Sequence record: BH153102.1
Reading direction: 5' to 3' (one strand)
Source: a phage
DNA: 323 bases
Shown here piece by piece: positions 1-323 of this stretch. The notes beneath the pieces were generated by a model. The model was given only the letters and a program-made list of their open reading frames with translations, was not told the origin of the DNA and made no database searches. Position 1 is the stretch's first letter; each line of letters starts with the position of its first letter. A program made the position numbers and the translations under genes.

Positions 1-27
1 TTTAGAACATAGAAAATGTATCTTTGG

Positions 28-38
28 TTAATTATTAA
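28..38. repeat. Perfect 11-bp AT-only palindrome TTAAT-t-ATTAA
   Basis: TTAAT at 28-32 is the reverse complement of ATTAA at 34-38. It lies where a -35 region or upstream regulator site would be for the 61-69 element. Because it is pure A/T in an AT-rich stretch, a chance occurrence is quite plausible. Confidence 0.2.
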
Positions 39-60
39 TCACTACATATTGTAACACAAA

Positions 61-69
61 TGTTATACT
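61..69 (+). promoter_or_regulatory. Extended -10-like promoter element, TGtTATACT
   Basis: TG at 61-62, one spacer base, then TATACT at 64-69 (5/6 match to TATAAT). There is no good -35 at 16-18 bp spacing: 41-46 actaca is 3/6 to TTGACA. TTGTAA at 49-54 is only 9 bp away and so is not a partner. Extended -10 promoters are known to tolerate weak -35 elements. Predicted start site would be around 75-78. Confidence 0.35.
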
Positions 70-79
70 CCGTAGGAGT
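67..79. repeat. Inverted repeat ACTCC-gta-GGAGT (5-bp arms, 3-bp spacer)
   Basis: Positions 67-71 (ACTCC) are the exact reverse complement of 75-79 (GGAGT). The repeat overlaps the 3' end of the -10-like element and the predicted start site. It could be a small operator or a short 5-bp hairpin in the transcript. Confidence 0.3.
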
Positions 80-86
80 TCGCGAA
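79..86. repeat. Perfect 8-bp palindrome TTCGCGAA
   Basis: Self-complementary 8-mer, GC-rich in its core within an AT-rich region, directly abutting the 67-79 inverted repeat. It cannot fold as a hairpin because the loop would be 2 nt, so if functional it is more likely a dimeric protein-binding site. Confidence 0.3.
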
Positions 87-106
87 GCATATCCTTTTGT
101 GTAGTT

Positions 107-133
107 TTTACATGTATGATTAAACGTTATGAT
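107..133 (+). promoter_or_regulatory. Alternative sigma70-like promoter candidate: TTTACA (107-112), 15-bp spacer, TATGAT (128-133)
   Basis: The -35-like hexamer is 5/6 to TTGACA and the -10-like hexamer is 5/6 to TATAAT, but the 15-bp spacer is suboptimal. A second TATGAT at 115-120 has no usable -35. If this promoter is active, the start site would be about 140-141, immediately before GTG 142. Confidence 0.2.
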
Positions 134-141
134 CTCCCCGC

Positions 142-246
142 GTGACTCGAAAAGATGTTAATGCTTGTGTTATCAAGATTGTAGAGAATCAGGATAAACT
201 GACGAAAGACCAGATTGTTGACTTACTGAAAGAGATTATTCTATGA
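142..246 (+). CDS. Candidate small ORF (34 aa from GTG: VTRKDVNACVIKIVENQDKLTKDQIVDLLKEIIL), stop overlapping the downstream start; may instead be untranslated leader
   Basis: Frame is open from 133 to the TGA at 244-246, bounded upstream by TGA at 130-132. The only canonical start in frame is GTG at 142-144; there is no in-frame ATG and no Shine-Dalgarno in 128-141 (tatgatctccccgc). The stop overlaps the downstream ATG as ATGA (243-246), a common translational-coupling arrangement. The C-terminal segment DQIVDLLKEIIL looks protein-like, but the ORF is too short for composition to be decisive. Confidence 0.25.
   Translation: MTRKDVNACVIKIVENQDKLTKDQIVDLLKEIIL
229..234 (+). promoter_or_regulatory. 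Putative ribosome-binding site (AAAGAG) for the CDS starting at 243
   Basis: Purine-rich GAG core 8 nt upstream of ATG 243. It is an imperfect match to AGGAGG. Confidence 0.4.
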
Positions 247-323
247 TTGGATTTAAACAGTTTGTTGAAGAAAATAAACTCAAAGAAGATATGACCGCTG
301 GCGTGCTGGCGGCAATCCTGAGA
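243..323 (+). CDS. 5' end of a protein-coding gene of unknown function (partial, continues beyond window). N-terminus MIGFKQFVEENKLKEDMTAGVLAAILR...
   Basis: ATG at 243-245 opens a frame with no stop through 323 (27 codons). The same frame has a TGA at 219-221, so 243 is the first possible ATG. A purine-rich AAAGAG at 229-234 sits 8 nt upstream, which is Shine-Dalgarno-like spacing. The peptide has a charged K/E-rich start followed by a hydrophobic run. An in-frame ATG at 291 is an alternative start, but the nearest purine run (AAGAAG, 283-288) is only 2 nt away. Confidence 0.6.
   Translation, partial: MIGFKQFVEENKLKEDMTAGVLAAILR

Follow-up and report, generated by a model that had tools for sequence, protein, structure and literature searches.

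The window, which is the whole stretch of 323 nt of DNA that was analysed, consists of two pieces of the phage RB49 genome that are not adjacent there, since they lie about 86 kb apart in a genome of 164 kb. The first piece is intergenic, and the second carries the 3' end of gene dc1 and the 5' part of gene 61.1, the stop of the one overlapping the start of the other. The features are listed here in window positions.

1-130, plus strand: piece A, RB49 intergenic DNA between RB49p165 and RB49p164 (DprA-like), equal to NC_005066 97729-97597, minus strand.
130-132, plus strand: in-frame TGA bounding the small open frame; artefactual, its T being the last base of piece A and its GA coming from the GATC at the junction.
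131-134, no strand: GATC junction, the overlap of the piece A match (1-134) and the piece B match (131-323), and the sole GATC of the window; the junction sequence is TTATGATCTCCC.
132-246, plus strand: 3' end of dc1, codons Ile89 to Leu125 and the stop (last 115 nt of the gene), with one extra C in the C-run at 136-139.
230-234, plus strand: AAGAG, weak Shine-Dalgarno-like motif in the dc1 coding sequence, 8 nt upstream of the 61.1 ATG; putative in function.
243-246, plus strand: ATGA, the dc1 stop (TGA 244-246) over the 61.1 start (ATG 243-245); invariant in 11 of 11 loci.
243-323, plus strand: 5' part of gene 61.1, codons 1-20 correct, with an A missing between 303 and 304.

Using megablast, 59 phage genomes were matched, 58 of them with RB49-like phage names (genus Krischvirus). 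Positions 131-323 matched these 59 Krischvirus genomes at 99.0%, with dc1 and 61.1 annotated beneath the match, and correspond to 11507-11699 in RB49. Positions 1-134 matched RB49 97597-97729 at 97.8%, in intergenic DNA unrelated to the dc1 locus; among the 40 records listed, no annotated feature lay under piece A, save for a note on tool provenance in one. The two pieces are oriented alike with respect to the RB49 genome. No record carried at least 80% of the window at one place, and the two pieces were adjacent in 0 of the 59 genomes searched. E. coli chromosomes and plasmids gave no megablast match to the window, which is phage DNA only.

The window differs from RB49 by four indels and by no substitution: a G missing after 88, CG inserted at 125-126, one C too many in the run at 136-139 and an A missing after 303. 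The first two are private indels in piece A, which shows 0 substitutions compared to RB49 (the G is missing between 88 and 89); in the other piece, window 131-323 becomes identical to RB49 once the extra C is taken out and the A put back. Furthermore, wherever other Krischvirus genomes carry a substitution relative to RB49, the window has the RB49 base. Since the differences from RB49 are indels only, they indicate reading errors rather than divergence, and the sequence looks like one of single-pass quality.

The intergenic region from which piece A comes is unusually long in RB49 (413 nt between p165 and p164). It contains a 38-nt direct repeat (TGT[T/A]TGATTAAATTATGATCAAAACGAAGA...), found at 2465-2502 and 2614-2651 of the piece A locus (L002), 149 nt apart, with window 114-134 lying in the second copy. 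A strong terminator hairpin is located upstream of the direct repeats (L002 2391-2410). Rfam searches of the window and of this parent intergenic region gave nothing credible.

A GATC is present at the exact join point in both parents, at L002 2630 for the piece A locus and at L001 3001 for the dc1 locus. Piece A extends from the base right after the GATC at L002 2497-2500 to the next GATC, at 2630, and piece B begins at the GATC at L001 3001 and ends one base short of the next GATC, at 3195, each piece being a complete fragment between neighbouring RB49 GATC sites with no internal GATC. The left end of the window adjoins the 3' side of an RB49 GATC, and the right end falls 1 nt short of a GATC, not exactly at it. 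Since GATC is frequent in RB49 (about 1 per 140 nt), a single coincidence is weak and the argument needs all four breakpoints together: positions within 1 nt of a GATC edge make up about 4% of these loci, and the joint chance for the four breakpoints is about 3e-6. No copy of the junction sequence turned up in the viral, metagenome and genome collections searched. The window thus bears the marks of a restriction-fragment ligation: non-adjacent halves, a junction and ends at the site of one enzyme, and complete fragments. Judged from the GATC pattern alone, it is most likely a ligation chimera of Sau3AI/MboI/DpnII-type fragments, captured in one clone or read.

The CG inserted at 125-126 lies 5 nt from the junction and shows a weak likeness to the dc1 side (ATTAAAACG); just upstream of its own GATC, dc1 reads ATTAAAACGATC, and the insertion could echo this other parent. 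It could be a reading error or the trace of a more complex join.

RB49 was reportedly first surveyed by sequencing random small fragments, in work by Desplats et al. in J Bacteriol in 2002. The 323-nt sequence may belong to that survey, a tie that we treat as a lead and not as evidence.

The same join could have arisen naturally, in an RB49 variant, in a defective or rearranged genome or in an encapsidated recombination product, with the 133-nt intergenic segment fused into dc1 so as to leave a truncated remnant upstream of 61.1. The common orientation of the two pieces in RB49 fits such an origin, and so does the habit of T4-type phages of shuffling their hyperplastic regions, small circles being formed by cassette recombination at PeSL (promoter-early stem-loop) elements (PMC2839356). 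In addition, dc1 is seemingly disrupted in the deposited genomes of phages ELT4 and FL15, so that it may be dispensable. However, a simple join would delete either 86 kb or 78 kb of the 164-kb genome, essential genes included, and an insertion at this place was seen in none of 59 genomes. The two pieces are far apart in 59 of 59 genomes, two independent RB49 records among them, and the junction is missing from three large collections. At the join itself, the dc1 side is coding sequence and not a PeSL, the identity between the parents is limited to the 4-nt GATC, and GATC sites mark the breakpoints as well as both ends. We consequently regard a natural join as unlikely, and we find it quite improbable that a rearrangement in vivo took place at the GATC microhomology in an RB49-like population, for example in a defective genome or an encapsidated recombination product. 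If such a rearrangement were true, the dc1 tail would newly stand behind intergenic promoter DNA while still being coupled to 61.1, and the window would show a gene fragment being shuffled outside PeSL cassettes.

Under the ligation chimera that we favour, the open frame of the window finds its place in an annotated gene. The initial annotation had noticed an open frame at 133-246 ending in an ATGA stop/start overlap with the downstream gene, and both are indeed in the sequence: the frame is open from 133 to 246, its first start codon is the GTG at 142-144, its stop is the TGA at 244-246, and its translation, MTRKDVNACVIKIVENQDKLTKDQIVDLLKEIIL, is the peptide reported then. It had also proposed that the frame, if real, would be a protein of roughly 34 aa missed by standard gene callers. 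This part did not hold: the frame corresponds to residues 92-125 of the annotated 125-aa Dc1 protein (RB49p020, NP_891591.1, phrog_16174), which is encoded in RB49 by 378 nt (L001 2738-3115). Residues 1-34 of the 34-aa ORF align to profile positions 92-125 of 125 of phrog_16174 (E = 5.8e-17), and from codon 91 on, window 139-246 matches RB49 dc1 without a difference, over its last 35 codons and the stop.

The window sequence enters dc1 at codon 89, and the true ATG of the gene, preceded by an AAGGAG, lies 264 nt upstream of this entry point. Compared to RB49 dc1, the window thus comes without codons 1-88, without the ATG and without the AAGGAG ribosome-binding site, and codons 89-90 are out of frame due to the extra C. 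The order in RB49 is dc2-dc1-61.1; in the window, 61.1 is still present downstream with the same ATGA junction, and what stands upstream has been replaced by DNA from 97.6 kb in the RB49 genome. The match to the family profile hence concerns the last 34-37 codons only and not a full-length dc1 with its own ATG and Shine-Dalgarno sequence.

The absence of an ATG and of a Shine-Dalgarno sequence ahead of GTG142, which had been pointed out from the start, was a sound warning sign: since GTG142 is the internal codon Val92 of dc1, neither is found ahead of the frame. Only the extra C at 136-139 brings the TGA at 130-132 into the frame of the dc1 tail, and the tail has the look of an orphan ORF of 34 codons since the 323 nt are not one continuous piece of phage DNA. 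Without the spurious C, the join at window 129-134 would read ATG-ATC-TCC-CGC-GTG..., which would put an ATG in frame at the head of the dc1 tail, a pure accident of the join.

Frame length alone is no evidence, since long frames are common in shuffles: when this AT-rich window was shuffled 2000 times, 1619 of the shuffles (81%) contained a stop-to-stop frame of 38 codons or more. The frame is real because of its homology and of its substitution pattern. For the latter, we used two more distant metagenomic loci, L011 and L012 (67% and 74% amino-acid identity, respectively). Over the last 35 codons, L012 shows 24 differences from RB49, 20 of which are at third positions (pN/pS 0.11), and L011 shows 28, with 19 at third positions (pN/pS 0.27). 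The conservation of the frame in related genomes with synonymous-biased substitutions, suggested earlier as a check, was thus found, with a third-position bias and pN/pS values of 0.11-0.27. The alternative offered by the initial annotation, an untranslated leader that is open by chance, is contradicted by this pattern, which is that of coding sequence under purifying selection; the frame is translated, constrained sequence as part of the 125-aa Dc1.

Dc1 is annotated and confined to the genus Krischvirus, with a full-length copy found by tblastn in 59 of 59 Krischvirus genomes. Among 5.8 billion proteins, its homologues form 22 clusters, all at least 67% identical to Dc1; 21 of these have lengths of 124-129 aa and the remaining one is an N-terminally short form of 94 aa. 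The dc1 frame is uninterrupted from codon 1 in seven of the nine aligned genomes and in both distant loci. Conservation is highest in the C-terminal 34 residues of the protein. An AlphaFold2 model built from a 21-sequence alignment was poor overall (mean pLDDT 53, pTM 0.38), and the two C-terminal helices, residues 94-124, were the only part modelled with fair confidence (pLDDT of about 72-76). We found no literature on Dc1 or Dc2 of RB49, the search giving only unrelated dendritic-cell papers.

Several variations were seen within the family. In phage ELT4 (L010, about 521-526), codon 42 of dc1 is a nonsense codon (GAA to TAA), and in phage FL15 (L004, about 459) a 1-nt deletion lies near codon 20; in both, dc1 is annotated as two ORFs, and the downstream parts are intact despite the upstream disruptions. 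Either dc1 may be dispensable or these records may contain errors. The 129-aa cluster P0018 carries a 5-residue insertion, GRLGA (columns 36-40 of alignment A1), that looks like a local duplication of the GRWG motif; in this loop, the variable, low-confidence part of the model, L011 carries an insertion of another kind.

One could imagine that initiation inside dc1, at GTG142, yields an independent protein of about 34 aa, a two-helix C-terminal module coupled to 61.1. The superior conservation of the last 34 residues, the confidence of the two modelled helices and the intact downstream parts of dc1 in ELT4 and FL15 would all suit such a product, but the conservation is fully accounted for by the longer Dc1, whose frame is unbroken from codon 1 in all but two of the nine aligned genomes and in both distant loci. 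Moreover, GTG142 has no Shine-Dalgarno sequence ahead of it, as a stand-alone small protein (<50 aa) should have, no short homologue was found (0 of the 22 protein clusters holds a form of about 34 aa), and a look-up of the exact 34-aa product gave no recorded gene call. We therefore hold an internal small protein to be very unlikely.

Considering that the frame belongs to dc1, the overlap at its end is that of two annotated genes. The overlap had been described as one of 4 bp in which the stop shares three bases with the next ATG; the 4-nt gene overlap is right, while the stop and the start share only two bases (TG). The overlapping CDSs of dc1 and 61.1 are already annotated in RB49, JSE, Phi1 and others, and the ATGA was found in all 11 loci compared, namely nine Krischvirus genomes together with L011 and L012. 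Upstream of the 61.1 start, the AAGAG has an AAGGAG as its counterpart in L011. As in coupled gene pairs, the stop overlaps the start and the overlap is conserved among homologues. Since the ATGA is invariant even at 67-74% amino-acid identity, translational coupling of dc1 to 61.1 is a reasonable proposal and, on these sequence comparisons, a plausible one.

Gene 61.1 encodes 58 aa in RB49. Compared to RB49 and to the other eight aligned genomes, an A is missing from the window between 303 and 304 (GGCGATGCTGG becoming GGCGTGCTGG), which puts 61.1 out of frame from codon 21. The downstream translation as first given was hence wrong from that codon on: its ...MTAGVLAAILR is corrected to ...MTAGDAGGNPEK...

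A sigma-70-like match, TTGACT-18 nt-TATGAT (10 of 12 positions), lies at window 218-247, inside the dc1 tail, with its -10 hexamer overlapping the ATGA. Transcription from it would begin within 61.1, and the TTGACT is not kept in L011 and L012. Promoter and terminator scans of the window gave counts no higher than in shuffles, and no terminator-like stem-loop was found in the window.

A conserved 4-nt ATGA overlap between two small genes also recalls two-gene modules, and the initial annotation had mentioned toxin-antitoxin and regulator-effector pairs as candidates for dc1, or its tail, together with 61.1. We consider this most improbable. Homologues of 61.1 are found in 1441 phage records, from many T4-like genera and many hosts, versus 59 for dc1, so that the two are not an obligate pair: dc1 is a lineage-specific gene ahead of a widely conserved 61.1. 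Neither protein has a significant match among Pfam, NCBIfam, PADLOC and PDB sequences, where only sub-threshold noise was obtained. The suggestion thus found neither co-occurrence as a unit nor a match to a toxin, antitoxin or defence family. Further 4-nt overlaps exist at the RB49 locus itself (40/41 and RB49p018/p017), and ATGA overlaps are commonplace in the tightly packed genomes of T4-type phages. The dc1/61.1 ATGA arrangement is genuine, already in GenBank and typical of such densely packed genomes.

Altogether, we consider it very probable that the frame at 133/142-246 is the Dc1 tail (residues 92-125), orphaned by a GATC-joined chimera. In the phage, dc1 starts at its ATG behind a strong AAGGAG, with dc2-dc1-61.1 inside a cluster of replication genes (41 ... 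61), and ribosomes that terminate on dc1 would probably reinitiate on 61.1 with the help of the weak AAGAG. Two GATC-to-GATC fragments of RB49, originating from places about 86 kb apart, would then have been ligated in vitro into one clone or read, and the join together with one spurious C creates the upstream in-frame TGA that makes the dc1 tail look like a short ORF. The frame is an ordinary one and codes for no new small protein; it is the dc1/61.1 junction seen through a chimeric, error-bearing sequence. Caution is thus warranted: in a chimeric or error-prone fragment, what is left of a longer annotated gene whose front has been cut off can pass for a short orphan ORF with a tidy ATGA overlap. 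The biology underneath is that of an ORFan, dc1, that overlaps a widely conserved small gene, 61.1, by an ATGA in RB49-like phages.

Modular shuffling at PeSL elements is known in RB49 and phi1 (PMC2839356), and it resembles the case of the window in that it concerns the same phage group, joins non-adjacent phage DNA and can give small circles. However, it uses homologous cassettes at both partners and exchanges nearby cassettes, whereas the pieces of the window are 86 kb apart and share only a GATC. PeSL-mediated recombination has a practically negligible chance of being the source of the join, since no homologous promoter/stem-loop cassettes are found at the junction and the dc1 partner is coding.

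With coupled ATGA genes of T4-type phages and bacteria, dc1 and 61.1 have in common the conserved overlap and the weak Shine-Dalgarno motif in the upstream coding sequence. They differ in that the upstream partner is a 125-aa protein and not a 34-aa peptide, and in that their coupling is putative. Finally, the window differs from chimeras of restriction-digest shotgun libraries and from proximity-ligation reads made with GATC enzymes by its right end, which is 1 nt short, and by the CG insertion near the junction, but it resembles both in its non-adjacent fragments joined at the enzyme site, in the completeness of these fragments, in insert ends that lie at sites and in single-pass errors that are indels only.
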